DNA of 64,000 nucleotides, counting the filler, from Jimgerdemannia flammicorona (lineage: Eukaryota): the NCBI GenBank assembly GCA_003990765.1. It is 3 parts of 3 records of this genome, joined end to end, with 100 filler letters (N's around TTAATTAATTAA, not from the genome) between each part and the next. Parts side by side here need not be neighbours in the genome. Positions count along the whole stretch, not along the records: positions 21,521 to 42,933 come from RBNJ01001459.1; 2 more parts are not named here. The stretch is one strand, 5' to 3'. The position numbers and the translations under genes were made by a program. Shown here piece by piece: positions 21,331 through 62,452 of the stretch. The notes under the pieces were generated by a model. The model was not told where the DNA came from. It did no database searches and saw only the letters and a list, made by a program, of their open reading frames with translations. Numbering within the stretch: position 1 is the stretch's first letter; every line of letters starts with the position of its first letter.

Positions 21331-21420
21331 GGGGTATTGGTTGAAGGGTTGGGGTGATATTGTATCATTATTATTATAGATAGTGGTAATAAAGGGCAGT
21401 CTAAGTGACTATAAAAAAAA

Positions 21421-26675: not shown

Positions 26676-26717
<42 letters not shown>

Positions 26718-30610: not shown

Positions 30611-31348
30611 TTATATAGCTTCTCTTTTAGCAAAAGATTAAAGATCAATAGATTGAGATATTAATATATTTTCTATGCTTTTTATAACTTTAGAATTTAT
30701 ACAGCTTGAGTAATAGTAATAATAATAATAATAATAACTTGAGTCACTTAGATAGCTAAGATAGTAGCTTATATAGTAATGATCAGAATAGTAGAAATAA
30801 CTTTAAAAGTAATTTTAGAGATAACTTTAGAGATAGTAGCTATAAGTAGATACTTTATTAGAGTATTTATTGTCACATAGTGGTCACTGAGTCCTTCAAA
30901 TATGCCAGATTCTCTTCAAGGTATATCTCTTAGACTAACTCAAGTTTATTATAAGCAAGTTCTTATTGGAGTATCTTTCCAAGGTCTTATAGTCCTCAAA
31001 CTTCTTATCTTTAACTGTCTTGTTATCCATTAGATTGCTTGCAAGGAAGTGTGTGTATTGCACTGAGTTGACTGATTTTATTTCAGAGAAAATAAGAGGG
31101 GTATTTATACAAAATATAATTCAATGGTTGCTAAGATATAAAGCTAAATATAAATTCCAATAACTAAAACTACTAAGTTCCAGGGTCAGCACTGATGTTT
31201 GTACAGGTTCAGGATGCTGGTATTATTTAGTGTTATATCAAAATGCTGGTGCTGGAACAATTTCGCATTACCTCAGAATACCAGTGCTGGCATTATCCAG
31301 TGTTACATGAGAATATCAGTACTGACATTATCCAGTGTAACAAAGAAC

Positions 31349-32152
31349 TTAGAGCAGAAAGTTCAGGACTATGGGGGCTTTATCATCATCATCATCATCA
31401 TTACTGAAGGAGATGAGATCCATGAATTCATCATGCAGGTTGTATGTTTTGCATACTTTGCATGCTTCAGGTACATCACATTCGGTGGTGGAGAAACTGG
31501 GAATAAGATCTGGAGCTCTCCAGTCTATGAGGTTCTCTTCCACAAAATAGGGGACAAATGTGGGGTCTTGGGGAGATCTAACCTAGATGCTTGGGCCTTG
31601 GAATACTGAGATCAATCCTTGCAGGAATTGGTCTGGGTTGTCCTGAAAGATAGGATGCCAGAAGTCTTCTACTTCTTTGCTGTTGAGGGTGATAGTGGAC
31701 TGGGCTTCTGTAGCCACCCTGGCTTCTAGTGCATTGATATGGCGGGATGATAGGTCTCTGAAGTCTGAGACTCTAACATACTCCAAGTTGGGGATCAACC
31801 ATGGTGTATGCCTGAAGATCTGATGGATCTTCATAGCTGTCCTTGTTTCACATATATCTATGGAAGTGGCATCTTGTAGCTCTTGGATGCTGGTCTGTGG
31901 GAACTCCTAGTAGAGGAGATTACCTATTTCATACTTCTACCACATTTGGAGACATTTGGTAGCAATGGTGATCCTTGTTTCCATTTTGTAGCAGTAGAGA
32001 ATAAAGTGATAAGGGTCTGCAGTACCCAGGTTGACATTAGGAGTCCTTCTTGAGTGGGTCCCCATGGCTCTTCTGATGTCTTGGAACATCCTTTCCTCAA
32101 CTGAGATACCTTGGTAATTTCTTGACCTTGAGGTTTGGTGGGCAGTAGGCAT
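31349..32152 (-). pseudogene. LTR accessory ORF, disrupted (A2 3' LTR)
   Basis: In-frame fragments 31937-32152, 31583-31834 and 31349-31543. Confidence 0.8.
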
Positions 32153-32759
32153 TTCATTTGTGATAAGTCTTTGAGCTATTTTGGGATTGGTGGTTCTTGT
32201 TGGTTGCTGCTACTGCAGTTCCTTGATTCTTCTTTTATATTCTTCAGGATGCTTGTACTGTGGTCACAATGACTCACAGTTGGTCATCATTGCTCATCTT
32301 GTATGCCATATGATCTTCTTGTGCTCTGATCTGGTGGCTTGCAAGAAAAGGCTGTCTCCTGTACTGATGTCATCATTCTGGGGTCACTGTTACATCTTCC
32401 TCCTGAATAAGGATCTTCTTGAGCATCCTTATTCATTGGTCCAGTCCTGAAAAATTTGCTGATCCCATAATCTCTGGCAAGGGGTTGAAAAGTGGTGTTT
32501 ATAGGCTAGTGTCTTCTCTTTGTATTTTGACATAATGGTGAAGGGTCACTTCCTTCATATAGAGCAAGGGCCTGATTCTGATCTTGACCAATCAGTTGAT
32601 GGTTTGAACTTCTCTAACTTCAAAAGTCTCATGGATGAGTAGTTGCCAGTGCCATATCCCTTAGAGAATGGTCCAGACAGATAGCCTGCTGGTCATGAGA
32701 CATGCTGTTATGATTCGCGGACTAGAACCTCATGGGCAGTCATTATGTTTTGCTTCTCT

Positions 32760-35700
32760 TGTATAGGTTTGTGGTACTTCTTAAGTTTATTCTTATATAC
32801 CATGGTAGGCAGTATGGTCCCTGAGATTTTTCTAAGCCAGAAGGTAGTTCTCTTGATATCTTACAGGTAGAAGGGTCCTTCTCATTTGGGCTCCAGTTTT
32901 CACAACTATGAGGCTTCTACCATATTTCAATACAGTAGAATCTTTTCTCCAATTTGGATGGGTTCTAGGGTCTTATGATTCTTTTCCATATTCTTCTTTG
33001 TCAGCGCTTGTGACTTGGTAATGTAATCTTCAGCCTTCTTTCTGATTTGGTGTAGTCTCCAGGTTTCTGCATCAACCTGTCTCCAAGTTAGGTCTAGATT
33101 TGTGGCTGAGGTTCCATCAGAATCTTCTTCTCCAAAGAGTAGCTCTCTTGGGATAAAATGTGTACTCTGTGACTGTATGTCTCATAGGACAGAGAGGGCA
33201 GTTGGGAGATAGTTATCCCAATTCTTATATGTCTTTGAGATCTTCACTAAAATGTTCTTGAGGGTCTTGTTGGTTCTCTCTGTCTGTCCATTTTCTTGAG
33301 GGTGGTATGCAGTGGTCTTGATGTGCTGGATCTTGTATTTCTGATACATTATCTCATGGAATCCATTGACAAATTCTGTTCCATGGTCTGTTGTAATTTG
33401 CTTTGGTGTCTTGTAGCAGCAGATGATTTCTTGGTGTAGGAAGTTGGCTATAGAGAGAGCATTGGCTTCTTATAATACTCCTGCCTCTATCCATTTGGTG
33501 AAGAGGTCTATAATAACTATAATATAGCAGTTTCCTGATAGTGTTACTGGTAGTAGTCCAATGATATCCATTACGATATGGTAGAAGGGGATAGGCTCAA
33601 TTCTTGATGACCCGGGTGCCTGGTCTTGCTGATCTTGTTTCTGTTTTGGTACTTGTCACACCCTTTGACAAATTGGCATAGGTCTTCTTCCATCTTGGGC
33701 CACTACATGGTTCTTCTTATCTTGTTATATGTATTAGTTCCTCCTAAGTGTCCTTGCTTGTGTACTTCCTTCATTACTTGATACTTCTTGTGTTCAGGTA
33801 TTACTAGCTTTCCTCCTTTTCTGAGTATAGTGTTGTCTAATTCAAACTGTTTCCAAGTCCGGTTGATGATGGTGATTGTCCAGGGTTTGAGATGGTTGGG
33901 CATCTTCTACTGCCCAAGATAGCTGATTAATCCATAGTATAGCTCCTTATTCATGTTGAATAATCTTGATGGGGGTGTTTCAGGGTGTCCCTGAGAGTGC
34001 ATCAGCATTGGTATTGGTCTTTCCTGAGCAGTGCTTGACAGTACAGTCATACTCTTGCAGTCTGTAGATCCATCTGGCATATATTCCTTTAGGGTTCAGA
34101 GTGTGGAATAGCCAGGCAAAAGTGGAATGGTCTGTTTGAATGGTGAAGTGTTTCCTAGCTAGGTAGTAGTGGAACTTGTCTACTGCCCAAACTACTGCTA
34201 AGCATTCAAGCTTGCATGACTCATAGTTCTGTTCTGCTCTGTGGATACCTTGGCTTGCATAGGAGATGACATATTCATGTCCATCTTTCTTCTGAGCTAG
34301 GACTGCTCCAAGTTCTATAGTATTCGCATCTGTCTGCAGGATGAATTCTAGATTCCAGTCTGATCTTCTGAGGATGGGTACTTGAGTCAACCTGGTCTTG
34401 AGTTCATTGAAGGTTTCTTGGTGCTCCTTGGTCCATTCAAATTTGGGCTCCTTCTTCAGTAGCTCATAGATAGATGCTGCAATGTTGGAGTATCCTTTGA
34501 TGAATCTTCTGTAGTAGCTGGCCAGTCCAAGGAAGGCATGGACTTCTGTGGTTGTTCTGGGTCTCAGGTAGGCTGCAACAGCCTCAATCTTCATAGGGTC
34601 TGTGTGGATTCCAGTCTGATTGATGAGGTGTCCTAGGTAGGCAATTTCTTGAGCATTTCTTGGGCTTGATATAGAGGCCATGCTCCTTGAGCCTCTTGAG
34701 GGCTAGCTGTATGTAATTGATATATTCCCATGCAGTATTGCTGAAGATGATCACATCATCAATATAGACAAAGAGCCATTTTCCAATCTCATTGCTGAAG
34801 ACTCTGTTCATCATTCGCTGGAAACTTGCTGGGGCATTGCACATTCCAAATGGCATTTGCAGATAGATATAGATGGCATCAGATATGATGAAGGCTGATT
34901 TCTTACTGACATCTTGAGTGAGACCAATCTGATGAAAGCCTGAGAACAGATCCAAGGTGGCATAGTATTTGGCTTCGCTTCCAAGAGTGGTAAGGATTTC
35001 TTGAATATTTGGTAAGAGCTGCCTATCCTTCTTGGTGATGGCATTGAGTTTCCTGTAGTCAATGCAGAGTTTTGGTACAAACTCTCCAGGCTTGCTTCCT
35101 TTCTTCAGGGCTAGGACAATAGGTGAGGCCCAGGAGCTGATAGCTTGCTTGATGATTCCAGCTTCTTCCATTTCCTTAAGTTCTGCTTACAGCCACTCTC
35201 TGTAGGCAGATAGTATGGGTCTGGCTTTCTGATAGATAGGCTTAGTATCACTGGTGTCAACTTTGTGGTAGTACTTAGGTGCTTGTTTGTGGATATCCCT
35301 AAAGTCTGTAGCAAGTACTCCTTGATTCTGGTGCAGGATCTTGAGAAGTTGTTTCTCCAGAGGAAAGTTTTCTCCAATGGTATATGTGTGCTTGTTCTGG
35401 TCCTTATCTTTCTTATGCTCAAGTTCAGTAATCTTGGTGGCAGCATAGGCTCCTCTTCCAGTAGATCCAAAACCTTGTTCTTCTCTCTTGGTCTTGATAA
35501 GTTTGATGGCTTCTATGATCTTGGGCTTCTTGATTTCGTGGATCAGCATCTGGCCAATCCTGTTATACTTCTTGACTTCGAAGGGAGTGGTGTGGTTGTG
35601 ATTTCTGACTATAAGGAAGATCTCGCTAGTGTAATCAGAGTCAATTACTCCTCCTTCAACTGAGATTTTGCTTTTGGCCAGACTGCTCCTGGTCTTGATA

Positions 35701-38023
35701 ATTCCAGCATGGTTCTCTGATAACTTGACTCCAATTCCAGTGCCAAGTAGGGTAGTGGTCTGTGGTTCAAGAGTAGCATCTTGAATGCTGGCAAGGTCCA
35801 TTCCTATGGCTCCTTCAGTCTTGTATTTTGGGATCTTAGCTTTAGGGTGAAACTTCTTGACCTTGAGAGTGATGTCTGATTCTTATTCCTCCTCATCATC
35901 ACTGTCAGCTTGAAGCTCTGGGGGCTGGTCATCTTCTTTGGCTTTCCTTTTTACTTTGGTGGCTTCTTGCTCATGTTTCTATTGGTGGATTTTCCTGACT
36001 TCACTGATACAGGACCAGTAGTCATTCAGGTGTTTGGCAGTACATTCTAGTGCTATGGGGGCATCTTCCTTGAGGGGCATAGCCATCAATGATCTTGTTG
36101 TTATACTGCTCATCTGTGAGCTTGGGTGTCTTGTTCTTGTTCTTGTTCACCAAGTGCATGAAGACCTCTGTGTCCTCTTCATCTCCTTCCTCCATGTCTG
36201 GTAGAACTCCTTTGTGGACATTAATAGAGACTCATACCTTTCTTCCTCTGTAGTTGATCTGCATCTTCTGGGCATTGAGGTCAATGATGGCCTTGGCCTT
36301 GTGAAGCCATTGGTTACCAATGAGAATGTCATTGTTGGTGGTGCTTGTAACAATCATATCTACTGGGATGGTAGCTCCTCCTATCTTAATGGGGACTTCT
36401 CGGATTTTGCCAAGGGGGGTAGCTCATGTACCATCTGCTATAACATAGATCATCTTGGTGAACTCTTCAATATTCTAACCTAGGTGGTCAATTGCCTTTT
36501 TGCTCATGAGGCATCCCCCAGCACCAGTATCAATGATGGCATCAAAGATACAATCTTCAATCTGACATGGAGTATAGGCTGATGTCTTGCACTGGTCTTC
36601 AGATTCTTCATCTGAGTTCTCAGATTCTTCCTGTACATTGTGAGCTTCTACAATCTTGTACTCTTGATTCTTAGCAGTAGTTGCAAGTCCTACTCTCAAC
36701 TGCTGTCTGAAGGCAGGGACTTCAGCTAGCTATCCAAAAGTGGCATTGATCTTCTGTTCTTTGAGGTCCTTGTAGATGTCATACTGGTGGATCTTGGTCT
36801 TGCACAGCTTCTGTTCCTTCTTGCTTTCACTTTCTCCTGAGACTGAAGTAGTGCCTTCAATAATTTGGTGAGCAACTTCATCTAATTCCATGTCTTGATC
36901 AATCTCCTTGGGTTGAGTCTTGCTTTGAATAGTGACAGCTGGGGTCTTCTTTGGTCTTCCAACTGGCTTGCTGTTGCTCTTCTTGTCATAGGGCTTGGAC
37001 TGGGTTCTGGTACCTTCAGTAGCAGAGTAGAATTCAAGCTCCTCATAGTATTCTTCATCATCAGTATCACTGATCTCCTCAATGACTACTGCATTGGTTT
37101 GTTCTCTAGTTCAGCTAGCATTACTTGGTTGGGCTTTGCATCTTATTTCAGTCATGCAACTCTTTGCATAGTGGCCTTCTTCTCCACATCTGAAGTATAT
37201 GATATTGTATTCTTCTGTAGCAGCTGCAAATCTCTGCACTGGTCTCCTGTTGGTACTTTGGACTTCTCTAACAATGTCACTAAGGTGTGCAGTCATCTCA
37301 GCAAACTGCTTGGCAAGTTCCTCCACTGGGTCAGCTTTGGCTGTCTTGGGGGTAGGTGGGATTGGTTGTCTGTTTACGACTGTGGCAGATAAGATACTAG
37401 TTGGCTTTGATGGCTCTATCTTGATGCCAGTTATTTTCTCCATTAAGTGTTCAGCAGGGTGTCTGGCAGTCCAATATCTCTGTACAAAGACCACTTTCTG
37501 ATCAAGAGTCAGTGTAGCTGGGGTAGACTGAATTGCTAGGGCAATTTCAGGGTAAACTTCTTTGAGGAAGATTGAATCTGCTATTTGTTCTTTGAGGTAG
37601 TCATTATAGCTGGCCAAGACAATCTGGTGGCAGATTTGAGTATAGAATGAGTTGGGATCTTCACTAAGTCCCTAGCAGATAGTATTGAGTTGATCCTTGA
37701 GAGCTTGCTTGATCTCTTCAGTATAATATGTTATTCTGAGGAAGACCTTTATATTGGCAAGTTTGGCTGCACCAGCATCAGCAATGGTAGCTGTATTGAA
37801 CTTGTCTCTGGCAGGTCCTCTAAGGCTGACTGGTAGAAGGACCAATTGTGCATCTACACCAAGGGCTTGTATGGTGGCGAATTGTTCAAAGTCTTCAATG
37901 AAGGTCAGAATTGACTCTTCAGTAGTATATCTATAGAATGTGGGGGGACACATTTCCATCTTGTCTTGAATTCTTGCAGGGGTGACTCTTGTAGTCAAGG
38001 TAGTTGTTGTGGGGGTTGTTCAT
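32760..38023 (-). pseudogene. A2 gag-PR-dUTPase-RT-RNaseH and separate-frame integrase
   Basis: IIDTGAG, dUTPase 35187-35801, YIDD in 34584-35171, RNaseH in 33980-34681, integrase from about 33954. Confidence 0.9.
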
Positions 38024-38557
38024 TTTTTAGCTTGAAAGTGAGAGATTCATCTTGAATCACCAGCCAATGAGCACTAAGTTGTCACATAGTAGTTGCTGAG
38101 TCCTTCAAATATGCCAGATTCTCTTCAAGGTATATCTCTTAGATTAACTCAAGTTTGTTATAAGCAAGTTCTTATTGGAGTGCCTTCCCAAGGTCTTATA
38201 GTCCTCAAACTTCTTATCTTTAACTGTCTTGTTATCTCTTAGATTGCTTGCAAAGAAGTGTGTGTATTGCACTGAGTTGACTGACTTTATTTCAGAGGAA
38301 ATAAGAGGGGTATTTATACAAAATATAATTCAATGGTTGCTAAGATATAAAGCTAAATACAAATTCCAATAACTAAAACTACTAAGTTCCAGAGTCAGTA
38401 CTGATGGTTGTACAGGTTCAGAATTCTGGTATTATTTAGTATTATATCAAAATGCCAGTGCTGGAACAATTTCACATCACCTCAGATTATCGGTACTGGC
38501 ATTATCCAGTGTTATATGAGAATACCAGTGCTGGCATTATCCAGTGTAACAAAGCAC

Positions 38558-39397
38558 TTAGAGTAGGAAGTTCAGGACCATGGAAGCTTCATCATCATCA
38601 TCATCATCATTATCACTGAAGGAGATGAGATCCACGAATTTGTCATATAGGTCACACATTTCATATACTTTGCATGCTTCAGGTATATTGTGCAGAATGA
38701 CATCATCACTGATGACATCATCACATTCAGCAGCAGGGAAACCAGGAACAAGATCTGGAGCTCTCCAGTCTATGAGATTCTCTTCCACAAAATAGGGGAC
38801 AAATGTGGAGTCTTGGAGAGATCTAACCCAGATGCTTGGGCCTTAGAATACTGAGATCAATCCTTGCAGGAATTGGTCTGAGTTGTTCTGAAGGATAGGA
38901 TGCCAGAAGTCTTCTACTTCTTCACTGTTGAGAGTGATAGTGGACTAGGCTTCTGTAGCCACCCTGGCTTCTAGTGCATTGATACAGCAGGATGACAGAT
39001 CTCTGAAGTCTGAGACTCTAACATACTCCAAGTTGGGGATTGACCATAGTGCATGCCTGAAGATCTGATGGATCTTCTTAGCTGTCCTCATTTTATATAT
39101 ATTCATGGGAGTGGCATCTTGTAGCTCTTGAGTGCTGGCCTGTGGGAACACCCAGCAGAAGAGGTTATCTATTTCATACTCCTGCCACATTTGGAGGCAT
39201 TCGGTAGCAATGGTGATCCTTGTTTCCATTTTGTGACAGTAGAGAATAAAGTGATAAGAGTCTGCAGTATCCAGGTTAACACTAGGAGTCCTTCTTGAGC
39301 GGGTCTCCATGGCTCTTCTGATGTCTTGGAACATCCTTTCCTTAACTGAGATACCTTGGTGATTCCTTGACCTTGAGGTTTGGTAGGCAGCAGGCAT
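38558..39397 (-). pseudogene. LTR accessory ORF, disrupted (A2 5' LTR)
   Basis: Fragments 38945-39397 and 38558-38788. Confidence 0.8.
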
Positions 39398-39639
39398 TTT
39401 GTTTGTGGTAAGTCTTTGAGTTATTTTGGGATTGGTGGTTCTTATTGATTGCTACTACTGCAGTTCCTTAATCCTTCTTTTATATTCTTCAAAATACTTG
39501 TACTGTGGTCACAATGACTCACAGTTGGTCATCATTGCTCATCTTGTATGCCATATGATCTTCTTGTGCTCCAATCTGATGGCTTGTAAGGAAAGGCTGT
39601 CTCCTGTGCTAATGTCATCATTCTGGGGTCACTATTATA

Positions 39640-41410
39640 TTATATAGTTCTGAAAGAGTTTTCTAGAAGTTCTAAATATTCTAAAAGATTATTTTCTTTA
39701 GGTCAAGATCAATTTTATATTGATTTTAAGATTAGATTAATATTTTAACTTTCTTTTCTTAGACTTGTTCTGAATATTCAGAATTTTTATTATTTCAGAA
39801 AGTTTAGGAAACTAAAATCAGTTTAGTTGAATTGATATATCACTGCAAATAATACCCAATTAGGAATTTCTTTTAGTACTTAAGAGTAGGACCTAATATA
39901 GTATAGATTTACTTAAGGGTAATTTGTAGATTATTAAATAGATTTATTTACTATTTATAATATTATCATTGATAAATACTAGAAATTATTCATATTCAGA
40001 TTGTCTGAGTTATCTGAGGTCTTAGAGAGGGGGTACTTATACTAATGAGAGACTATCTGAGCTAAACTCAATATAGATTTGGTACTTTAGTACTGATTAG
40101 TCAAAATATAATTATAGTATAAATTTTAAACTAATAATCTAGAGATCATCCAAATACTCAGCTCCTTTCTCTGCTACCTTACTGATCACAAGGTTTGGTA
40201 GGCAATCTTCTGAGTCCCCTTTCCCCTATTATTACCTCCTCTACCTTAGGTTGGTTTGCTGTGCCTGCATGGACATGGTGGAAGGAGGGCAATGGTGATG
40301 TGTTGCCTCTTTATCAGTGTCAGATTGATGCTTTCTCTACTTTTTCATGGATTCTGGTACCTTTGGCTGCATCTGGGGTATACTCATTTTGGTGCAGCAC
40401 CTTCTTCCTTTTGCCACTACTAACAAGAAGTTGTCTCAGTGTGTCATGGATTACATAGGGAGTTAGCTGACCTTGGGCATCAAGTGCCCAGTGTAGGTTA
40501 CCTGCAGGTCCTCAGTGTCTGTGGTGGGGCCCTCTGGCTTTGGCAAGCTTCCCAGCAAGCACAGTTCTGGCATAGGTGACAGTTTTTCAGGTATTGTCAG
40601 GATGGAAGGAGAGATGGCCATCATAGATAGGAGGATGGGCAATAATGGTGAACTAGTGGGGTATTAGGCTAGGGGTGGTCATCGGGGCTGGGGCAGACAA
40701 TATTTCAGTGGGGCCTTTCGATTAGCTAGTAGGGGGTAGGGTGGTGCAGGGGCCAGCATCTTGGCTGTACCCAACTGGAACTGGGAGCTGATGCGACAAT
40801 GCAATTGAGGCCTGCAGGCTTGGAGAGTGGGGCCTTCCTCATTTGGCAGTATCTAACTGAAACTGAGAGCTGATATGGTAATGTGATGGGTCTTTTCTGA
40901 CCCTAGCCTATGTGTAAGTCCTTTGTGGAAGGTTCTGTATATAAGTTCTTTACTCACCTGCTTTGAATCTGCTTTGCTCTCTGTTGGTTGGTTGGGGGGT
41001 TTTTTCTTTGCTTTGGGCTTTCTTTTGGGGTTCAGGGGGCTATTCTTTATTCAGTTCTGGTACTGCTAGATCTGATACATAGGTGTGCTCTTACATGTAA
41101 ACAATGATTCAGCCCTGGTGAGCAGACAAGTCTGGTCTATATCATGGGGATCAATGTAGCCAGTGTTTGACAGGCATAGCTAGAGCAGTGGAACTGCTAG
41201 ACAATTTAGTAGCCTAGGTTAATGGGAGATATTGTTTGGTGGATAGTGGGAGATATAGTACTAACTAATTTAACTATACTAATAACTGCTAAACTATTTA
41301 TAGATATATTCTATCTAGGTATTTATTGATAAGATTACTATTAATTATATATATCATTTCTGATAAAGTAATTATTAAAAAAGAGTAGTTTTTAAATTAT
41401 TTTTTTATAC
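39640..41410 (-). mobile_element. Decayed second copy of element D, with an internal ~1.1 kb GC-richer insertion (~40150-41260)
   Basis: 39640-40150 resembles 45443-46010; 41265-41410 resembles 46050-46200, with many C>T/G>A changes. Confidence 0.65.
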
Positions 41411-41863
41411 TGTCACGTAGTGGTCGCTGAGTCCTTCAAATACGCCAGATTCTCTTCAAGATGTATCTCTTAGACTAACTCAAGTTTGTTATAAGCAAGT
41501 TCTTATTGGAGTGCCTTCCCAAGGTCTTATAGTCCTCAAACTTCTTATCTTTAACTGTCTTGTTATCTCTTAGATTGCTTGCAAGGAAGTGTGTGTAAGT
41601 GAACTGAAACTGACTGACTTTATTTCAGAGGAAATAAGGGAGGTATTTTATACAAAATATAATTCAATGGTTGCTAAGATATAAAGCTAAATATAAATTC
41701 CAATAACTAAAACTACTGAGTTCCAGGGCTGGCATTATTTAGTACTACATCAAAATACCAGTGCTGGAACAATTTCGCATCACCTCAGAATACCGGTGCT
41801 GGCATTATCCAGTGTTACATGAGAATACTGGTGCTGGCATTATCCAGTGTAACAAAGAACTTT

Positions 41864-42682
41864 TTAGAGCAGAAAGTTCAGGACCATAGGGGCTTCATCA
41901 TCATCATCATCACTGAAGGAGATGAGATCCGCGAATTCATCATGCAGGTCACGCATCTCGCATACTTCGGGTATGTCGCGCGGAATGACGTCATCGCCGA
42001 TGACGTCATCACGTTCGGCGGGGAAATCGGGAACAAGATTTGGAGCTCTCCAATCTATGAGGTTCTCTTCCACAAAATAGGGGACAAATGTGGGGTCTTG
42101 GGGGGATCTAACTCGGATGCTTGGGCCTTGGAATACTGAGATCAATCCTTGCAGGAATTGGTCTGGGTTGTCCTGAAGGATGGAGTGCCAGAAGTCTTCT
42201 ACTTCTTCACTGTTGAGGGTGATAGTGGACTGGGCTTCTGTAGCCACCCTGGCTTCTAGTGCATTGATGCGGCGAGATGACAGGTCTCTGAAATCTGAGA
42301 CTCTAACATACTCCAGGTTGGGAATTGACCATGGTGCATGCCTGAAGATCTGATGAATCTTCTTAGCTGTTCTCGTTTCATGTATATCCATGGGAGTGGC
42401 ATCTTGTAGCTCTTGGGTGCTGGCCTGTGGGAACTCCCAGCAGAGGAGGTTTCCTATTTTGTACTCCTGCCACATTTGGAGGCATTCGGTGGTGATGGTG
42501 ATCCTTGTTTCCATTTCACAGCGGTAGAGGATGAAGTAATAGGGGTCTGCAGTACCTAGGTGGATACTAGGAGTCCTTCTTGAGTGGGTCTCCATGGCTC
42601 TTCTGATGTCTTGAAACATCCTTTCCTCAACCGAGATACCTTGATGATTCCTTGACCTTGAGGTTTGGCGGGCAGCAGGCAT
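41864..42682 (-). CDS. Intact 272 aa LTR-encoded accessory protein of unknown function
   Basis: Open ATG-to-stop frame entirely within the LTR; homologs in five other A LTRs, in C and in D; acidic C-terminus. Confidence 0.8.
   Translation of the reverse strand: MPAARQTSRSRNHQGISVEERMFQDIRRAMETHSRRTPSIHLGTADPYYFILYRCEMETRITITTECLQMWQEYKIGNLLCWEFPQASTQELQDATPMDIHETRTAKKIHQIFRHAPWSIPNLEYVRVSDFRDLSSRRINALEARVATEAQSTITLNSEEVEDFWHSILQDNPDQFLQGLISVFQGPSIRVRSPQDPTFVPYFVEENLIDWRAPNLVPDFPAERDDVIGDDVIPRDIPEVCEMRDLHDEFADLISFSDDDDDEAPMVLNFLL
41985..42010. promoter_or_regulatory. Two tandem TGACGTCA (CRE-type) palindromes
   Basis: ATGACGTCAT at 41985-41994 and GATGACGTCATC at 41999-42010, in a local CpG-rich patch. 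Confidence 0.55.
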
Positions 42683-42933
42683 TTTGTTTGTGGTAAGTCT
42701 TTGAGCTATTTTGGGATTGGGGTTCTTGTTGGCTGCTACTACTGCAGTTCCTTGATCCTTCTTTTATATTCTTCAGGATGCTTGTGCTGTGGTCACAATG
42801 ACTCACAGTTGGTCATCGTTGCTCATCTCGCATGCCGTATGATCTTCTTGTACTCTGATCTGGTGGCTTGTAAAGAAAGGCTGTCTCTTGTGCTGATGTC
42901 ATCATTCTGGGGTCACCGTTACATCTTCCTCCT

Positions 42934-43033
42934 NNNNNNNNNNNNNNNNNNNNNNNNNNNNNNNNNNNNNNNNNNNNTTAATTAATTAANNNNNNNNNNN
43001 NNNNNNNNNNNNNNNNNNNNNNNNNNNNNNNNN
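42934..43033. other. Assembly gap with TTAATTAATTAA linker
   Basis: N-run. Confidence 0.95.
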
Positions 43034-45340
43034 CCCCCACTACTCCCTCCTCCTATCCCTTCTTGATAAAAGACTACTTTGTCAACCACCATCGCTACCT
43101 GCCCACCACTCTGTTTACAGATCTCTTTCACCAGATGGTGACATTGCCCACCCTGGAGACTCCAACCAATCTACCACCCAGTCAGTAGATCTTCCACCAA
43201 AGTCTCCCACCTCAACAACTTCTCCTGTATCCCTATTTGTTGCCCTTCCTCAAAAACAAAGAGCTAATGCCCAGCCAAACCAACCCACACTGCTACAATC
43301 CACCCTACCATAAGCCACCCATTGCTGACACCTCCCACCAGTCTAGATCTCAAATCCTCCCAGCAACCTCTCTCACCATCTGGCCTCCTTCCTACACCCA
43401 GCTGGTCCTCTATAGCTATCCAAAAGTCTCCCAATATCTCACATTCTCCCAGCCAATGTTCTAGCATCTGCACAACTCCCCCAGCATGCCCTACATTATA
43501 ACACTCCTCACAATCCAGTCAGCTACCAACTACCAGATACTCTGTACAGAAATTCAACATAACATTTCTCTATAGCATTCACCACCAAACTATCCAGAAC
43601 TTGAGAGGAAGCCATCTCTGCATCTCAGCACTCCAGGACCAGATTCCTGCCCAGTCCCACTCCTCACCAATCCCCACTATCTGCCAGCTCTTCAGCCAAA
43701 GATCCTGGCCAAGTCCCTGCTGATACTCCACTCCATTGCCAATATCAAACTCAGCAAGCAGCATCCCCCCTAGAAGCAGTCAGTCCCATTGCCACATAGC
43801 AGGCTCCACACCACCTCTCCCTCATTGCCATACCAGCACAAGCCTATTTGGTGTGCTCCATTCACCACTCTCTATCAGAAGCCCTTATACCTCATCCAGC
43901 AGCTTCCATTCAGACTCACCAAAGAGAGCAAATCACCTGAGGACTCTTGAGGGGAGACTCTCATCTCCCACACCTTTTGCATCAGTAGTACCCAACCTCC
44001 TCCCTGCAGCTCCACTGTCCTTCTCAACCACCAGGCTTGCAGACAGTATAGCTGCTTAGGAAAATCTATCAGACCTAGGCCTCTCTTAATCCTCTGCTCC
44101 ACAAGGATATCCCAACTGATCTGGGACCTTCTTCTTGTCCAAATCCAATACCTAACCAGTTTCATCAGCCTCTTCACCACCCAGACTAAAAAGTCTAAGT
44201 GATACACCACATACCATAGCTTGGGGAACCAGTAAACATTCAAGATTGATACCCTCCCTATCAGAGAGATGTGACAACCTCCCTAACCTCTAAGAGCCTC
44301 CCCCCAAACAGCTACCCTTCTCTCCCACTATACCCATGGTAAGACTGACCTATATACAGAAAGAAAGATACCAAGATACTACACTATCTCTCCTGTGGGG
44401 ATAATTGTTCCAATGATATCTCCTCCCACTAGCCCATTTCCCAACACTATTGTCTCACACTTATACTAGTTGAGTTTTGCTCCAGAGTGCATCTCATACC
44501 ATTCCACTGTTTCCTTAAGTGCCTCCACATCCACCACTGATCCAAGTCCAACTACTATATCATCTGCAAAGGCCCCCACCTTCTTCTGGATCCTATCCAT
44601 CAAAGGTTCCAGTGAAAGTGCATAAAGAATAGGGGACAGCGGGTCTCCCTGGGGAACTTCTCTTCTTAAGGGAAATGCCAAACCTCTATAACTATTGCAC
44701 ATTAGTACTGCCCTACTGCTCTCCAACAACTTCAACATAGAAGCCCTAAACTGTTGTGGAACACCAATTCTATCCAGCACCTTGCCTAACCATACCTACT
44801 GAACATGGTCATAGGCCTTCTCCTGGTTCAGAAATATCAGTCTACCATCCAGTTTGCAAGCCTAGGCCCCTTCTATAATGCCATGCACCCAGGTAGTCCT
44901 ATCTCTGATAAGTCTTCCTCCTACAAAGCCCTGCTGTTCCTCACTCAGTACCTATTGAGCAACCTTCTGTAGCCTTGCAACAATCACCTTAGTCACTAAC
45001 TTCCTATTCATATCCAGAAGCATGATTGGCCTCCAGTTCTTCCAGTTCTCTTGTCCACTCTTGTCTTTATACAATAAGGCCACCAGCCCCAGGTCTTGCT
45101 TACCAACCCACTCGTCATTCAGAAGAACATAGTCACAGAGGGCAGCCATCTCTCCTAACACTTCAGGAACCTTTGTCATCTTCTTCCAGAAGTCCCAAGG
45201 TAATTCATCCTCCTCAGGTACCATCTCAATCTTAGTTGCTGCAAGGACCCCCTGGACCTCCTCCTCTTGGACTGGTAAGATCAGGTCACTCAGTCTCTCT
45301 ACCTATGGTGGCTCTCACTCTTCCAGAGCATCACTAATTG

Positions 45341-47478
45341 TGTAAGTGCACAACCTCCAAGCTACTGAAATCACATGTTACCCTCTGAACAAACCACCCA
45401 CTACTTCCAAGTTGTAAGAGGGTTGCTTTTTAGGATAACCATTATGTAGTTCTAGAAGGGTTTTCTGGAAGTTCAGGATGTTCTGGAAGACCATTTTCTT
45501 ATGGTCAAGATCAATTTCATATGGAGTACATTCTCTATGCTTATTGATTTCAAGATTAGGTTGATATTTCAACCAAAGTCCTTTTTTAGACTAGTTCTGG
45601 ATGTTCAGGATTTTTCATATTTCAGAAAGTTTAAGAAACTAAGATCAGCTTAGTTGAATTGGCATATTGCTGCAGACAATACCCAATTAGGAAATTTCGT
45701 GATAGAGTTAGGAGTGGGATCTAACAGGGAGTGGATTTACTTAAGAGTGGTTTGTGGGTTATTAAATAGGTTTATTCGCTATTCATGATATTACTATACT
45801 AAAAGTAGTTGTATGAAGAGATATTGTGGGGAAGTGTTCAGGAATGTTCTTATATATTCGAGTCTGAGATTCTGAGGTCTGGGGGAGGAGGTATTTATAC
45901 TAGTAAGGGGCTATCTGGACTATGCTAAATATGGATATAGTACTAAGTGCCTTGCTGAGTCGGAATACAGTCACGTAGTACAAGTGTGATCTGATATATC
46001 AAGAGATTGTCTGACTGCTGAGTCAGTTCACAGTCATATTATACAAGGCTAATCTAACTATACTATGACTGCTAAGCTATTTATAGGTTTAGATACTGTC
46101 TAGGTAGTCTTCAATGATATGTATCACCATCTATGACATCATCTCTGATGAAGTAGTCATCCAGGAAGAGTGGTTTGTGGATTACTTCTCCTTGTTCACT
46201 GAGGTAATAATACATTGGGACATCATCACCATCCTACAGGATAGCATCATCTGTCTCATATGCTGGATAAGGTGTTGGTGGGTGAAAGAGGGGTGCATTG
46301 TCTTCACTTTCATCAAATTCACTGTCTGTGTATCTTCTATAGATTACAGTACTATGAGTCACAGGATTGTAGTAAGCTGGTGGCTGTGGTTCATATCACT
46401 CATACTCAGGTGGTGGAGTGGTTGGTTTGATCTCAAGAGTTATCTGGAGGTATAGGTTATGTTCTCTGGTCTCTTCATTATAGTTGAAGTAATTAGAAGT
46501 AAATGTGGGTTGGTATTTATGCCAGTGGTCATTGTCCCAATAGGTTTCATATATAGTTATGAACTATTGTAAGTTCATTGGCAAGATTGGTGGTGTGATC
46601 AGAGTTGGTAGAGATCCTTGGCTAGAGGTCATGTTGGCATCAGAGAGATCATTGTCTTCTGCTTCATCTTTGTCGAAGTAGATTATATCATAGACATCTT
46701 TCATAGTATATCCAACTTGAGGCATTTGTAGGATATGATCATTGGGATGTAGGAAGGTTCTGTCTGTGGTCTCGACATATTCAAGGTACTTGTGGTTAAG
46801 TTCTTGTATCATGTCATCAATTTGGCCATAGGATAGAGTAGCAACCATTTCACTGGTAGTGACATGGAGGTGGGGAATAAGGGTGCTATACTCATAAAAG
46901 AGTTCTCTGTGTTTGCAGATGATGAGCTTTTAGTATTGAAACATCTGGATAATGTCTGTATTATGGTGGTGTTTGACTATATCTTCTAGGAGGTGGCTGA
47001 TCTGGTAGTAGCTTGAGATTTGTCCAATCCAGTGGGCCTCATTAAGCATGTTCAGGGTGTTCCATCAGGCTTCCATGAAGTAGAGAGGTACTAGACTATG
47101 GATATTCATGAGGGGCAGAGGGGGTGTGACTTGGTTGACAATGGCATTCCAAATGTCAGCATGGATACAGTTGTAGATCTCAGTGGTCATGTTTGTGTGT
47201 TTGGAAGTTGTGGTTGTTATTTGTTTTGGTTCTCTGTTTTGATGTATCTCAGTGCTCAGTATATATGCATTTGGTCCTGATTGGTAAGATTCTGTTTGTA
47301 TGAATCTTGTGTTCTGTGACTTCATATTGACTCAGCTTTGTGTACTGTAACTTCAGTTTGACTCAGCTTCATGATCATGCAGGTGATTTCTAGATTTATT
47401 CAGAGGTCATGTGTGATTTCGGTGGCTTGTTTGGAGGATGACATGTGATTTCAGTGGCTTGGAGGTTGTGCACTTACA
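45341..47478 (-). mobile_element. Element D: 2138 bp, ~58 bp terminal inverted repeats, 5 bp TSD AATTG (solo LTR or non-autonomous TIR element)
   Basis: Left end TGTAAGTGCACAACCTCCAAGCTACTGAAATCACATG; right end is its near-perfect reverse complement; AATTG at 45336-45340 and 47479-47483. Confidence 0.88.
46111..47190 (-). pseudogene. Distant homolog of the accessory ORF inside D
   Basis: 47065-47325 and 46564-46848 share a frame bridged by two stops; a frameshifted acidic tail runs to 46111; ungapped motif blocks align with the A and C ORFs. Confidence 0.6.
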
Positions 47479-50400
47479 AATTGCCTCTCTCTCCACACTC
47501 TCTTCTCCCTCACTCCACAGATCCTACCAACTCTCCTTCAATACCCCCAAGATCTGTTGCATACTATATACCATATTCCCTTTAGTATCCAAGACTCCAT
47601 CCCACCTATGTCACACCCTTCTAGCTTTGAGGAGTCTAGACAAGTACCTAGTAGGTCACTCCCCCTCCTCTAGCTCCTGCCACTATAACCTGGTAGCCAT
47701 CTCTTGCATATGAGTCTCTTCCTCCTTCCTCAACACCTGTTGCAATTCCACTACCTCCAATTTTGCCCACTCTAACCTCCAATCATCCATCTCCACAGAA
47801 GAAAGCAAGTCCACCCATTCCATCTGCAATCTCATCAGCCTATTTAAAGTACACCATATGTGCTTCCTCCTCTGTCTCTCAGCCTCTCTACCAGCTCTAC
47901 CCCAATAAACCCTTGCAGCCTCCTTCAACCTCATCCACCAGACACCGACAGACAAACCCTCATGCCTCTAGATAGGAACCTTCACCTGTACATCCTCCAC
48001 CCATGAGTCTCACAACCCCTTCTTAGCCAGCAGAGAGGAGTTAAGGTACCAATGTCTGGGTCTATCTCCACTTCCCCCAAACTGCCCCTGCCCTAATAGT
48101 CCCCAGTGATCAGACCATGGGCACCACTCCACCTCCAAAGACTTCCAAACATCAGTACCCCAATATTCAGCTGTCAGTATCCAGTCAATCCTTGTGCTGT
48201 TGCCCCACCATGTCCTGCCCATATCTCCTAAGGAGCTAAGATTCTCTACCTCCTCCCATACCTCCAGGCCACCACTCCTCTCACCTGCATTTTTTCTGCC
48301 ATCAGTTCTATCTAGATGCAGATCCCAAACCATATTAAAATCCCCACCCAGAATATTGACTCCTTCCTCTAAGAGAATACTCTCCTCCAGTAGCTCCCCA
48401 ATCTATACAATCCTCTCACCCCTAACTATAAGGCAGTAATAGGAGCCAACCCACACCAATTCCTACTCTGGCTGAATCCAATCTTCCCAGACCAATCTAT
48501 TACCCCAGTTCCTGATTCCCCTCAGGTCTCCTCTACTCTTCTTCACCAGAATTGCCACTTTGCCAAACCAAGCAGTAGCCCCACCCCATTCTCTAGTCCA
48601 CTCCACCCAATCATCCTCATCCTCACACTGTACATCCTGTAGTAAGAAGAGATCAGCCTCCAATCCCTTGAGCAAAGTGAAAATATTCTTATACATACTA
48701 CCCAGAACCCCTTAACCTATTCACATTTAAAGAGAAAATGTTGGTTGTACTGTTCATAGGAAATAATGTTTGATATCACTCACACTCTCTACAAATCCAC
48801 ATTCAACTTCTCCTGTACCAAGTCCAGGTCTCATTCAGTCACTAGTTCATTCTTCTCAGCTTCCTGTGCCTCCAACCCTCCCAGAAGTTCAGCCATTGCC
48901 CTATTCTCTCTCTCCTCAAAGTCCTCATGATACTCCAGACAGACCTCCTGCCAGAGCTACAAACCATAATGCTCTGCCCAACAGTAGGCAGCTCTCTCAC
49001 CTTATCAACCTCATATCCCTCCTCTTCCATGAAAATCACCAGAATCTCTACCTTCAGTGCCTCCACCACCCCATTACTATGCAGAATCCATGCCCAATAC
49101 TCCTCAGACAATACACACAGATCCACTTCTCCCAACTCCTCAGCTGTGAGATTATCCATCACCTTACTCATCCACAGCAGGTTCCTCACCTCCTTCCCTC
49201 CTGGAGTTCCTGGCCACCCTGCATCCAACATTGTGGTATCAGCTCCCATACTGGCAGCCTCATCCCACTCCTCCTCAGAGACATCCACCAGCTCATCCTC
49301 ACCAACTGCCACTACCTGGCCCCCTTTTACTACATTGGGGACCCCAAAGTGCACTTACTGAGCTCTCTGCATCAGTACATCCTCTGTTGGCCCTCTCTTC
49401 ACAGCCAGGCCCCTCCTGATAAGAGGGGGGGAAGTGGCCTCCAACTCCTGCTCCCAGACTTTGAACATACTGTCCATATAGGGGTCCTTGCTTGGCACCT
49501 TCCCAGCTCCTTCCTTGTCTGCCTCCACCTCCCCTTCACCTTTACTAGCCCAGACACTGGCTTCAATGCTCCCAGATATGTCAGCCCCATCTACCTTCTT
49601 TTTTGCCCCTTCTTTCATACTTACCAATAACTCCCTCTGCCTCCTGCACCCCTGGGCCTGCTCTCACTGCCACTTGTTAGTGCAAATACACTTCCCATCC
49701 ACAATCTTCAGATGTGTTGCCTCCTCAAACACTCACCAGGCCTTTGCCCTCCTCTCAACCACACCACTCAGCTCCTCCAGAGCCTCCAACAAGTCCTCCT
49801 CCTCCTCATCACTCTCTTTCACCCTCGACACCTTACAGACAAAAACCCCCCACATTAGTACTGAGGGCCAGTTACTTGCCTTCCTGGTGGCCTCCTTTCC
49901 CACCAGCTGAATCCTGACATCAATGTCACCTATCCTGAATATAGTCCTCTCCCACATCTGGAAGCCAATATCCACCATATCACTATACTCTACCATCACC
50001 TCCTCCATTCTTCTCCTAGTCTCCTCCTTCATCACCATCAGCACCCCCTTTACTAGAAGCTGCACCACCCTGGGGTCCCACCTCAAGTACCACACCATAG
50101 GGACCACTACTTCCCCAACCACTATTCCAGCCTTCAGGGCCTTGTCCAGTGGGCCTGCCTCCTCAAAGCCCACCTCAACTCCCTCCAGACTCTTCAGGAA
50201 CTTTACCAAGACTGCCCCAGCCACCTGCTTTAAAATCAGCCCCAAGACCATCCTCACCATCACTGCTAAGCCTTGAAAGCACAGGGTAGCCACAAACTCC
50301 AAGATTGATTTCTTGAGTAATGGGGCCACTGCCAGCCCCATTACACCATCCGCCAGATCCCCCTTCCGCATTGGGACCCCCTGCCTCACCTGGCCATCAG

Positions 50401-51924
50401 CCAGCACATCTCTTTTTTTTTTCTGATCCCTCATTACACTCCCATCAACAGTTACACCCCCAGCCACAGCCCCTCCTGCCCCTATGCTCCTATCTCCTCC
50501 CTGAGGGCCACTCCTCCTCCTGACACTAGCCTTGCTCTTCCCCTCAGCAGTGCCAGCCCTGATTCCAGCAGGCCATCTACCTGTCTTCACCTTATCAGCA
50601 AAGCTGGAGGGACCAGGCCTACCCCCAGATCCACCAGACACTGGTCCTTCTCTAGAGCCTTTGCCACCCTTTGACCCTCCAAAAGCCCCCATCTCCAATC
50701 CATACCCTCTCCCCACATGCTGCCAGCTAAAAGCCTCAGGTCCATCTGACCCAGCATACTCATCAGAACTCTTGCTCGATGACATATTTATAATACCTTT
50801 CCTCTGAGTTGTGTTGAAAAACTGTTGCTTGAGATTGGTGTAATGTGAATTGTACCAGAGAAAGGTGATAATATAGTTATCTCTGTATGGAGGTCTTGGT
50901 CATTAGATAAATCTAGTTTTGAGGATTTGAAGGAGATATATAGTATATTGATAAAGGTATTATATAATTGTGGATTGGGGAACAGTTCTGTGATGATGAA
51001 AGCTTATCTTAACTCTTTGGAAAATTCTTCAGAAAGATCCTTAAGTTCACTTACTATCTCTTCTTTAACAGCAATTAAATATTCTCTCAGTATTATTTGA
51101 TAAATAGATTCTGAGTAAGTCTGTTGTTCATTTATATCTAATAGCAGAATTCTAAGATAAGGGGACATATGCTGTAGAATTAGATAAAGGGGTAAAGGAG
51201 ATATACTCTACTTACTTTACTTTAATAGGGGTTGGAGTAACTTCTGGAAATGTATTAGACTGCTTAAGCAAAGCAATGGGCAAATATATATTTAATGCTA
51301 TCAGCATTTATTCAGTATCATTATTCTATCAAATAGTTGATATATAATATATTATATGTATATTCATCTATCTGATCTATGGTAATAAGTGAAAATATAG
51401 ACTGGCCAAAAGTTTATTAATATATTTATTCTTGTATCTGATCTATAGCTTGTTAATGTTATTCATACATCTGTTCCATGAGCCATAAGCAATGAAGCTG
51501 CAGCCAAAAGCTTATTTAATATATAGATATATATTTATATATATTATAGATTGGGCTTTAGTCAAGAGATAATACCAAAAGCTTAGTATATCTATATTAA
51601 TCAGTCTTGTTAATCAGTTTAAAAAAAAAAGATATATATTCATCATTTTTCTATTATTTTAAAAAGAAAGAAAGATATAATTTAATTTAATATATATTTG
51701 TGCAGCTCACCCTTGTGCTATAAGCAAAAATAAAATATAAAGGAGACTATGAATGTCTATGTTACTCTTCTATTTATCTGCTATAATCACTAAAAATTTG
51801 TATAAAGTGGCCAGACTATCAGTTGGATCTTTCAATAATGAATTTGATAGTAAAGAGTGTAAGAGCATCAGCAAGAAGGACAAGGATATCAGCAATGATA
51901 TGGTGGATTATACCAAAAAACTAG

Positions 51925-52235
51925 CAGTCCAATCCAGCAAGAGTGGCATTAGCTAACTCAGTAAGAGTAGTATCAGTTAATCTAGTAAGAGCAGTATTAG
52001 CTAACCTAGTAAGAGTAGTATTGATCAACTCAGTAAGAGCAGCATCAGCTAATCCAGCAAGAGCAACATTGGCCAACCCAGCAAGAGTGATATCAGTCAA
52101 CCCAACAAGAGTGGTATCAGTCAACCAGTCAGCCAACTCAGCAAAAGCAGCATCAGCAAACTCAGCAGAAGTGACATTGATGAACTCAGCAGGAGTGGCA
52201 TCAGTAAACCCAGCAGGAGTAGTATTGGTCAGATC
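51925..52235 (+). repeat. 24 bp tandem repeat (~12 units) in a decayed ORF
   Basis: GCATCAGCTAATCCAGCAAGAGCA-like unit; 8 aa periodicity in the ORF track. Confidence 0.8.
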
Positions 52236-52989
52236 AATCTAGTCAATAACAGTGACTATGAAACCCAACTGAATAAAAAAGAACAAACTCACATCGAAAT
52301 CAAGCTGAGTCAAAATGACCAGATCAGCCAATATGAAAGCAGAAAAAATGAACTTACAATATCTCACCAGACTAACTCTAGTTATTCTGACCAATTGAAC
52401 CAAACCACACAGAGAAAATGTGACCAAAATAACCAGACCAGCCAATATGAAAATAGGAAAAATAAACTTATGATATTCTACTGGACTGACTCTGGCTATT
52501 CCGGTCAATCAAACCAAACTATGTAAAGAAAATACAATTATATAACATTTAGTAAAGAAGATGATTATGATGAAAATTACATATCTAATGACAATTGGAG
52601 TGATTCTAAGAGTGCAGTCTTACTGGCTCTAAAAAACTATACAGATCTCCTATGAGAATCAATCACTTCTTATATCAGTTATACTGAAGATACCTGTAAG
52701 AAGTACTGGGTGGCAATGGCTGCAGATCAAAAAGAAAAAAGAAGGATAATTGATTCTCAACTTGGAATTAAGTAGACCAGAGTACAGGATGATGTTTTGA
52801 AGATACTAGTTGAAAAGAGTACTAGTTAGGTATAAATTGCTATAATAATTCCAGATTGGGATCTGAAACAGTATGAAAAAAAATAGAGAGAGATCAACCA
52901 TGGGCACCATTAGAATAGTATTGATCAATGAGCTCTACTAGCCACTATAGTATGTATTTTTTTTTTTTTTTTGAAATAAAAAACACTTA

Positions 52990-55741: not shown

Positions 55742-56383
55742 TCTTGTCTTGTCTTTTCTTTGTGAGGAAAGGGAGATGAGAGTTGCAGGGTATTCTTGCC
55801 TTGGGTATTTATACTTATTTGCCCATCTGATGTAACCTTCCTTTGGTCACACTTTCTGGCAAAATGCATGACCTGTGCTATAAGTGGAGCATATGCTGGT
55901 CACATGAGGAAATCCTGATTTCAAAGATCTCGTCACCTGTCTGTGGTTACACAGGGTTAACAGGTCTTGGTCCACTTTTTTTTTTGTCTGGTTGGCGCAT
56001 TTGCGAGGACTGGCCATCCTTGTCTAGGGCGAGGGCTCTCATTGTCATGGCTGGGGGTTCGAACCTCTCAGAAATAGACTTTCTTATAATCTGAGGCAAT
56101 TCTTAGTAACAATATCTATCACGTGGATGGACTTAGACTGGTTTTGACATTGTCAGCTTTTCTAAGTTTCACATGAAGCGTCTGTCATCATCCAGCAGAG
56201 ATGATACAGATGGCGTGAAATGGAGTTGTTCAAATGCATTTTGCTGTACTGTACTAGATTGTTCTTTTGCTTGGGTATCTTCTTGTTGGTTATCCATAGT
56301 GTTCCTTTTTTCACAATGTTCGGTATTATATGTTTCCAGATAAAAATATGTGGTATCCTTCTGTTCACTGTGTGCTCCTATAC

Positions 56384-62366: not shown

Positions 62367-62452
62367 AGTTATTTCTGGGGGTTACTCCTGTCCAAGGTTG
62401 GTCTTGTTCCAACTTCAGGAGTGTGTTCTTTGATGCCTTCTTGGCTGGTAAT

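Follow-up and report, generated by a model that had tools for sequence, protein, structure and literature searches.

How does a complete protein-coding gene come to lie inside the long terminal repeat (LTR) of a fungal retrotransposon, and what might it do there? To our knowledge, the LTRs of Ty3/gypsy elements are generally treated as non-coding. The DNA examined here is a 64,000-nt stretch from Jimgerdemannia flammicorona (hereafter, the window) composed of three contigs (1-21420, 21521-42933 and 43034-64000), in which an earlier note, made from the sequence alone, had pointed to a whole 272-aa open reading frame (ORF) within an LTR, upstream of a TATA box. We confirm this observation: The ORF (41864-42682, minus strand; MPAARQ...VLNFLL followed by the stop, from translation and the family alignment) is intact, lies entirely within the LTR and precedes a TATAAA at 41652-41647. 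It is a real gene under purifying selection that is specific to its reading frame, and it is found in two Ty3/gypsy families of the window, inside the 3′-unique (U3) region of the LTR in one of them (family A) and outside the LTR in the other (element C). The overall reading that we favour, and that we consider probable if by no means settled, is that of a real accessory gene ('ORF3') belonging to a narrow, dUTPase-bearing, fungal-type Ty3/gypsy lineage.

The family-A LTR that harbours the intact ORF in sense orientation is 1,513 bp long (41411-42923, minus strand; TGTAAC...GTGACA), as delimited by an alignment of five LTRs, self-blastn and loose contig ends. The latter stem from three public runs whose contigs (of guessed or unknown kind, none on record as RNA) were aligned to 41300-42933. 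These contigs cover most of the LTR, with length variants at 41706-41866, and stop precisely at 42923 and 41410/41411, with one contig extending into primer-binding-site sequence; the loose ends at the same positions thus lend independent support to the LTR termini. A GT..AG joint across the family-A LTR was not seen in these contigs over 41300-42933, which, none being on record as RNA, is uninformative on expression or splicing. Directly upstream of the LTR lies the polypurine tract AGGAGGAAGA (42924-42933, minus strand), identical to the tract before the 3′ LTRs of the two family-A elements A1 and A2; the family's element borders read AGGAGGAAGA, TGTAAC...GTGACA and ACTTGGTGCCC in turn. The intact LTR, at the very end of the contig, is the 3′ LTR of a cut-off element, its interior unassembled, and not a demonstrated solo LTR. 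The ORF begins 241 nt inside the LTR start, and its end is separated from the TATAAA at 41652 by 212 nt. Because the LTR, with the polypurine tract before it, already starts 241 nt ahead of the ATG, the gene in its entirety, along with the TATA box that precedes it, falls within U3 and is therefore copied into both LTRs.

Is the intact copy a single oddity? tblastn detected the ORF in every family-A LTR of the window, to which all counts of elements and ORF copies given here refer. Window self-comparison delineated element A1 (217-9079, plus strand; LTR pair 81% identical) and element A2 (30864-39640, minus strand; 89% identical), and tblastn together with stop counts placed a decayed ORF copy in the 5′ LTR (459-1316, plus strand) and 3′ LTR (7761-8594, plus strand) of the former and in the 5′ LTR (38558-39397, minus strand) and 3′ LTR (31349-32152, minus strand) of the latter. 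These four full-length copies have 2-3 internal stops each and retain 70-83% amino acid identity to the intact ORF (tblastn); a partial decayed copy (29587-30109, plus strand; tblastn and hidden Markov model (HMM)), situated in an LTR of a nested third element of family A, brings the number of decayed LTR copies to the five that had been announced. The third element occupies 22895-26684 and 29077-30617 on the plus strand and is broken by an inserted repeat at ~26684-29077, which resembles 21525-22881 and 43047-44308. The intact copy has a CpG count of 33 (observed/expected 0.44), as compared to 3-15 in the other four LTR copies. Being the least CpG-decayed, it indicates that the gene is whole in the youngest copy and that CpG decay has disrupted it in the old copies. 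As regards the decay itself, 23 of the 25 CpG sites of the family-A consensus are hit, the CpG observed/expected ratio of old LTRs is down to 0.05-0.07, and C-to-T changes are also common at CpA and CpC. Judged from the sequences, this pattern is a signature of methylation-deamination or of a process resembling repeat-induced point mutation.

Element C (54111-63277, minus strand; self-comparison and Pfam) is a complete chromovirus with 810-bp LTRs (54111-54920 and 62468-63277, 93% identical) and a 5-bp target-site duplication, TTTTC. Pfam returned the domain order gag, dUTPase, protease, reverse transcriptase, RNase H, integrase and chromodomain, the last of these (PF00385, E 3e-12, 56384-56692) lying C-terminal of the integrase, which identifies the element as a chromovirus; no chromodomain was matched by Pfam in two integrase C-terminus fragments of family A. 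Both A and C bear the marks of Ty3/gypsy elements (Metaviridae), namely direct LTRs of the TG...CA type, a polypurine tract and a primer-binding site, and both have pol in the Ty3/gypsy arrangement of protease, reverse transcriptase, RNase H and integrase (Pfam). The homologous ORF of element C (54932-55741, minus strand; tblastn) comprises 269 codons with one in-frame stop (55529-55531) and is 33% identical to the family-A ORF along its full length (E 3e-42 in the search of the window). In the core from KKIHQI to GP.IR, 45 of 84 ungapped positions are identical (54%), exactly the count obtained earlier by eye, and the motifs FADLI(S/D)F and P(M/L)VLNF, likewise reported before, are present in both proteins. 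Positioned 642 nt past the pol stop, the C ORF ends 11 nt before the 3′ LTR and thus outside it, with the polypurine tract GGGGGGAAGGA (54921-54931, minus strand; read from the sequence) between its stop and the LTR; the element borders are GGGGGGAAGGA, TGTAAT...ATTACA and ACTTGGTAGCAG. The same layout of ORF stop, polypurine tract and TGTAAT recurs in L001, a metagenome contig of 1,535 bp that encodes an intact relative of 291 aa and is the sole related DNA locus that we compared. The gene is hence outside the LTR in C and L001 and inside U3 in A, in agreement with the earlier description of an ORF 'inside or beside the LTR'. The LTR boundary would have shifted relative to the gene, in one direction or the other.

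Further parallels between the two families concern their interiors. The primer-binding sites of C (62456-62467; TGGTAGCAG) and A2 (38068-38079; TGGTGCCCATTGGCTGG) both start with ACTTGGT right after the LTR, the former apparently resembling the 3′ end of initiator tRNA-Met. dUTPase is located between protease and reverse transcriptase in family A (4010-4708 and 35187-35882) and before the protease in element C (60194-60487), the two being 38% identical over 110 aa. Taken by themselves, the element types would suggest a fungal host, probably a basidiomycete.

What argues for a selected gene, as had been supposed, is first the comparison of C with L001: Over 268 codons, dN/dS amounts to 0.18 (dN 0.30, dS 1.66; Nei-Gojobori), differences at codon positions 1/2/3 number 83/59/130 (p = 6e-7), and the ratio of nonsynonymous to synonymous differences per site (pN/pS) is 0.37 in the frame of the ORF versus 0.97 and 1.39 after shifting the frame by either step. 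Secondly, gaps among the five family-A LTRs respect the frame, with all 13 gap events in the ORF being multiples of 3 as opposed to 1 out of 9 in the remaining LTR sequence (Fisher 2.8e-5). Thirdly, between A and C the ORF is conserved to a degree comparable to that of enzymatic domains of the same elements (33%, with 54% in the core, versus 35% for RNase H over 143 aa and 38% for dUTPase over 110 aa), and the start codon and motifs are kept across three protein subfamilies down to 27-35% identity. Intact or long relatives starting with MP(A/P) are, moreover, present in other samples.

How widespread is this protein, and does it resemble anything known? Searches of public proteins returned 6 relatives among 5.8 billion clusters and, with HMMER reading all 1.84 billion representatives in full, 5 among the latter, and a profile search gave 13 matches. 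In total, 14 relatives (P0001-P0014) were collected outside the window, all of them unnamed or termed 'hypothetical protein' and from short metagenome contigs. They fall into three subfamilies (A-like, C-like and a further one comprising P0010-P0012 and P0014), the full-length members beginning with MP(A/P); longer or fused forms were absent among 8,000 scored candidates. At the DNA level, a metagenome scan yielded one locus, L001, out of 169 pattern matches, and viral contigs none out of 77. No host-gene homolog was found among the 1.84 billion representatives and 5.8 billion clusters. The family had been called unrecognised, and it stayed so: For the ORF, the best Pfam entries (ATG5_HBR, E 0.02; Apo-CIII, E 0.11) were both below the cut-off, Pfam assigned zero families to L001, P0009 and P0011, PDB sequences gave no hit at E <= 10, and Foldseek with the predicted model gave none against PDB at E <= 0.001. 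A wide VIA-align search peaked at Z 4.0, which is no fold match, and the best scores in an Atlas search (0.85 and 0.89) came with few features in common and likewise represent no match. Homology to Gag was not detected either, with an hhalign probability of 0.3% between the family profile and the gag-region ORF of element C.

The protein itself is acidic (pI, the isoelectric point, 4.5-4.9), and the maximal 19-residue Kyte-Doolittle mean is 0.43-1.07 in all five members examined, none of which has a signal peptide or a transmembrane-like hydrophobic segment. It is thus not env-like, and the acidic tail noticed earlier is real: Over the final 70 residues the net charge amounts to -8 to -18, and the conserved hydrophobic motifs F.DLI.F and P.VLNF are located in this tail. 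The first 45 residues, in turn, are weakly basic and Arg/Ser-rich (net charge +1 to +8). The core is predicted, at low confidence, to be helical with a short beta hairpin, and the most conserved stretch reads ALE..VA.EA.S.I.L.S....W.P.LQDNPDQ.LQGL...F.GP.I. Among short motifs sought by eye in the tail (clathrin box, acidic dileucine, LC3- or Atg8-interacting motif, SUMO-interacting motif, nuclear export signal), none is kept in all members.

How might the gene be expressed? In family A, a TATAAA (42763-42768, minus strand) situated 86 nt upstream of the ATG is a candidate ORF promoter, being the sole TATAAA in the 241 nt from the LTR start to the ATG. Its counterpart in element C (55808-55813, minus strand) is located 72 nt upstream of the start codon and is the sole one in 749 nt. 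L001 follows suit, so that each of the three lineages has a single such box upstream of the ATG (A, -86/-87, 241 nt scanned; C, -72, 749 nt; L001, -80, 375 nt), for a background frequency of 73 TATAAA in 128,000 strand-bases, and in all three the interval from the TATAAA to the start codon is devoid of any ATG. The start-codon block AAAGACTTACCACAAACAAA.ATGCCTGC (42675-42702, minus strand) is 96.6% identical between A and L001 in a 29-column blastn alignment, compared to only ~65% DNA identity for the two ORFs overall, a closeness that hints at a swap of the 3′ module between elements.

A second TATAAA lies downstream of the gene. In family A it occupies 41652-41647 and is followed after 22 nt by an AATAAA at 41624-41619, 239 nt past the ORF stop (together 41619-41652, minus strand). 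This pair, with an offset of 27-28 nt, occurs in 5/5 family-A LTRs and in both C LTRs, where its surroundings are homologous (77% identity between A and C over 57 nt). The earlier note had described the LTR DNA of the two elements as otherwise dissimilar, which does not hold for these 57 nt. Most simply, the shared TATAAA/AATAAA would represent the genomic core promoter and a candidate poly(A) signal. A homologous core promoter downstream of the ORF in A and C places the family-A ORF in U3, and the upstream TATA boxes of C and L001, being outside the LTR, cannot be the genomic promoter. With the transcription start placed from the sequence, the family-A ORF thus lies in its entirety in U3, before the genomic TATA. 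Between the gene and the core promoter, a repeat search revealed tandem 35-bp repeats (41723-41854, minus strand; 3.5 copies, with length variants in other runs) directly after the ORF stop, an enhancer-array-like arrangement specific to family A. The repeat unit opens with ATGTAACACTGG, close to the LTR's own 5′ terminus TGTAACAGTGA, at the position where a C-type LTR begins, and may thus be left over from an earlier LTR border immediately behind the gene, the arrangement seen in element C.

Together, this suggests that transcription of the ORF is driven by a TATA promoter of its own, situated 72-87 nt before the ATG, and that the transcript ends at the AATAAA of the LTR, a proposal we hold to be somewhat better than evenly balanced. 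In family A, every LTR would then form a self-contained promoter-ORF-poly(A) unit. The product would be a soluble, acidic protein in which a helical core links a weakly basic N-terminus, rich in Arg and Ser, to the acidic tail. As to its role, which the earlier note had put as that of a transactivator or anti-silencing factor, composition and position allow a tentative suggestion, namely that it regulates the expression of its own element from within the nucleus, as a transactivator-like adaptor and possibly via the 35-bp repeats located between the ORF and the genomic TATA. An extension of this thought, by analogy and in our view distinctly unlikely as a whole, would portray family A as a 'complex retrotransposon' whose LTRs, solo ones among them, are each an autonomous gene that feeds back on the genomic promoter through the 35-bp repeats, in a Tas/Tax-like or anti-silencing circuit, the gene having moved in by a shift of the polypurine tract/LTR boundary.

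Several points weigh against these proposals. Promoter, poly(A) site and translation of the ORF are all read from the sequence, and the three upstream TATA boxes are not independent observations if they were inherited. No fold or family match backs any function; both AlphaFold models are poor (mean predicted local distance difference test scores of 54.1 and 55.9), so the fold searches carry little weight, and it is from composition that the tail would be deemed 'activation-domain-like'. The estimate of selection leans on one pair, C and L001, with a saturated dS. Within family A, substitutions are nearly all transitions (up to 82:2), same-element LTR pairs, expected to be neutral, already give dN/dS values of 0.31 and 0.58, and changes shared by two copies do not differ from single-copy changes (p = 0.36). 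Given the transition-dominated decay and the values of the neutral pairs, within-A substitutions are uninformative on selection. A dN/dS near 1, named beforehand as the result that would speak against a selected gene, is not what C and L001 yield (0.18), and family A gives no answer on this point.

Could the ORF instead be translated from a spliced subgenomic mRNA, its product acting post-transcriptionally, via the N-terminus, in the export or packaging of genomic RNA, similarly to Rev or CERV? This is the alternative that survives best, although we regard it as rather unlikely. The basic, Arg/Ser-rich N-terminus (+1 to +8 over 45 residues) would suit such a role, and pyrimidine-rich stretches followed by AG occur just before the ATG. 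Nevertheless, no YAG acceptor is kept in all three lineages, whereas the TATAAA is. Fungal introns are typically short, and splicing here would need an intron of 5-6 kb, unusual in fungi. The 5′ LTRs of family A carry the ORF as well, ahead of the genomic promoter, where leader splicing could not serve it. The position 3′ of pol is shared with CERV in Cer1 (PMC10309623), a likeness by description.

The doubling of the gene into both LTRs, with a candidate promoter and poly(A) signal inside each, invites another thought: The product might be a self-limiting factor for copy-number control whose dose rises with the number of LTR copies, solo LTRs among them, and so dampens transposition, following a logic like that of Ty1 p22. 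Conservation fits this as it fits any element-serving function. Ty1 p22, however, is a fragment of Gag, and the present protein has no similarity to Gag (hhalign 0.3%). Moreover, the C-type gene is single-copy and outside the LTR, and dose-counting therefore cannot be the ancestral role. As a proposal from sequence and analogy, copy control strikes us as improbable.

A third possibility turns the assignment of the promoters around. If the upstream TATAAA, 86 nt before the ATG and within the LTR, were the genomic promoter of family A, the ORF would lie in R/U5 (the repeat and 5′-unique regions) as the first ORF of the genomic RNA, resembling ORF0 of rice Retrosat2; extra 5′ ORFs of this kind are known in plant elements (PMC3485330). 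In C and L001, though, the unit of TATA and ORF is outside the LTR, beside the 3′ LTR only, from where it cannot start genomic RNA; the TATAAA/AATAAA core that follows the ORF in A is homologous to that of C; and an AATAAA 239 nt past the stop would terminate genomic RNA inside the 5′ LTR. We consider this very improbable. Least probable of all is a passenger, that is, a captured host or foreign coding sequence carried unused, or a chance ORF, since the lack of any function or fold match, the broken state of 5/6 window copies and a nucleotide identity among A LTRs that is no higher in the ORF (82-90%) than in the LTR remainder (83-93%) are set against frame-specific purifying selection between C and L001, ORF indels that are all in frame, a start codon and motifs kept across three subfamilies, matches confined to short unnamed contigs with no host-gene homolog among them, and the fact that the broken copies are the CpG-decayed ones.

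The accessory gene that we favour is more narrowly distributed than first thought. The earlier note had placed the family in three mobile elements, with a distant homolog in a third one, element D. Neither claim held, HMM, tblastn and hhalign all being negative: Only two Ty3/gypsy families in the window carry the ORF. The family HMM, run on all six window frames with stops as X, recovered the six A copies and C only (next i-E 0.6), and tblastn of the window with four diverse relatives produced elsewhere nothing better than E 0.4. The best candidate ORF, at 20412-20960, reached an hhalign probability of 0.5%. A third protein subfamily does exist, outside the window, in the public metagenome proteins P0010-P0012 and P0014. 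Element D is likely a non-LTR element resembling long interspersed nuclear elements (LINEs), as motifs of reverse transcriptase (44466-45302, minus strand; QGDPLSP...FADD) and of a GDFN-type endonuclease (48010-48402, minus strand) could be read by eye. Two LINE-like copies at ~15700-21420 and 43034-50900, mutually 63-65% alike and probably the element D of the earlier note, display a very marked strand bias in composition (GC skew reaching +0.53 and -0.49); their long ORFs were without Pfam match. Low-complexity, periodic peptide repeats on both strands (LA..L.., S.I.QPSKS-like) mark 51921-52526, which falls in the window's most AT-rich part. The N runs at 21421-21520 and 42934-43033 both have the form N44-TTAATTAATTAA-N44, a six-frame stop linker of the type used for contig joining; the window therefore consists of three joined contigs, and neighbourhood across the joins is artificial.

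What does it mean for a fungal retrotransposon to own such a gene? Extra genes are what separates 'complex' retroviruses from simple retroelements, and the present lineage has one too, an orphan conserved as well as the enzymatic domains of pol. The gene outside the LTR in C and inside U3 in A represents a natural before-and-after pair for the entry of genes into LTRs, and the same pair lets one ask what the doubling of a gene, and its being left over in solo LTRs, do. If true that the protein regulates transcription or silencing, this would place it among element-encoded regulators as a new one in fungi. In more practical terms, the ORF family may serve as a marker for annotating these elements, nearly absent as it is from protein databases (14 unnamed fragments). 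Newly described here are an orphan accessory gene family in fungal-type Ty3/gypsy elements, located in U3 in one family, and, at the level of sequence, the candidate upstream TATAAA shared by three lineages and the putative core promoter homologous between A and C. Our literature search, whose coverage mostly excluded subscription journals, turned up no earlier account of protein-coding genes within the LTRs of (fungal) Ty3/gypsy elements.

Close parallels come from retroviruses, where genes of the HIV nef type overlap U3 and where sag of mouse mammary tumour virus (MMTV), a betaretrovirus, resides inside U3 of the LTR and encodes a type II membrane glycoprotein. Like sag, the family-A gene is a complete ORF in U3, hence present in both LTRs, in an element that has a dUTPase, and it is dispensable for reverse transcription. 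It differs in that its product has no hydrophobic segment and no detectable relation to any named protein, and in that its host is a fungal-type Ty3/gypsy element and not a vertebrate retrovirus. The tas/bet genes of foamy viruses have an internal promoter, and tax of human T-cell leukaemia virus (HTLV) acts on 21-bp repeats in U3. With these, the present gene would share an accessory position 3′ of pol, a candidate promoter of its own, an acidic-hydrophobic tail and U3 repeats by the genomic TATA, a likeness read from the sequence; homology is lacking, and the repeats here have 35-bp units and are confined to family A.

Among Ty3/gypsy elements, Cer1 of C. elegans encodes CERV from a spliced mRNA, a protein needed for the export of genomic RNA (PMC10309623). 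CERV, too, is a novel protein other than Env whose gene lies 3′ of pol, and its role is regulatory and not structural, as proposed here; it differs in its spliced mRNA, its location outside the LTR and its host lineage, the two having been compared by description only. Extra ORFs restricted to certain lineages and common to distinct element families are known from bdelloid rotifers, whose ORF3 types are found in several retroelement classes (PMC5408684), and from plant elements, with ORF0 of Retrosat2/RIRE lying 5′ of gag (PMC3485330). In fungal elements, the legend of Fig. 3 in PMC2864245 lists an 'add. ORF' of unknown function, which could be identical with the present family. In the portions of these sources available to us, the additional ORFs are internal, 5′ of gag or 3′ of pol, none being described inside an LTR, and the bdelloid ORF3 types have recognisable enzyme or env folds, unlike the present protein. 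dUTPase, for its part, is also present in bdelloid elements and, at variable positions, in gypsy elements of basidiomycetes such as Postia placenta. There it is found at the N-terminus of Pol in PosPlaTy3-3, and between protease and reverse transcriptase in PosPlaTy3-5 (PMC2864245), and these two placements match those seen here in element C and in family A, respectively.

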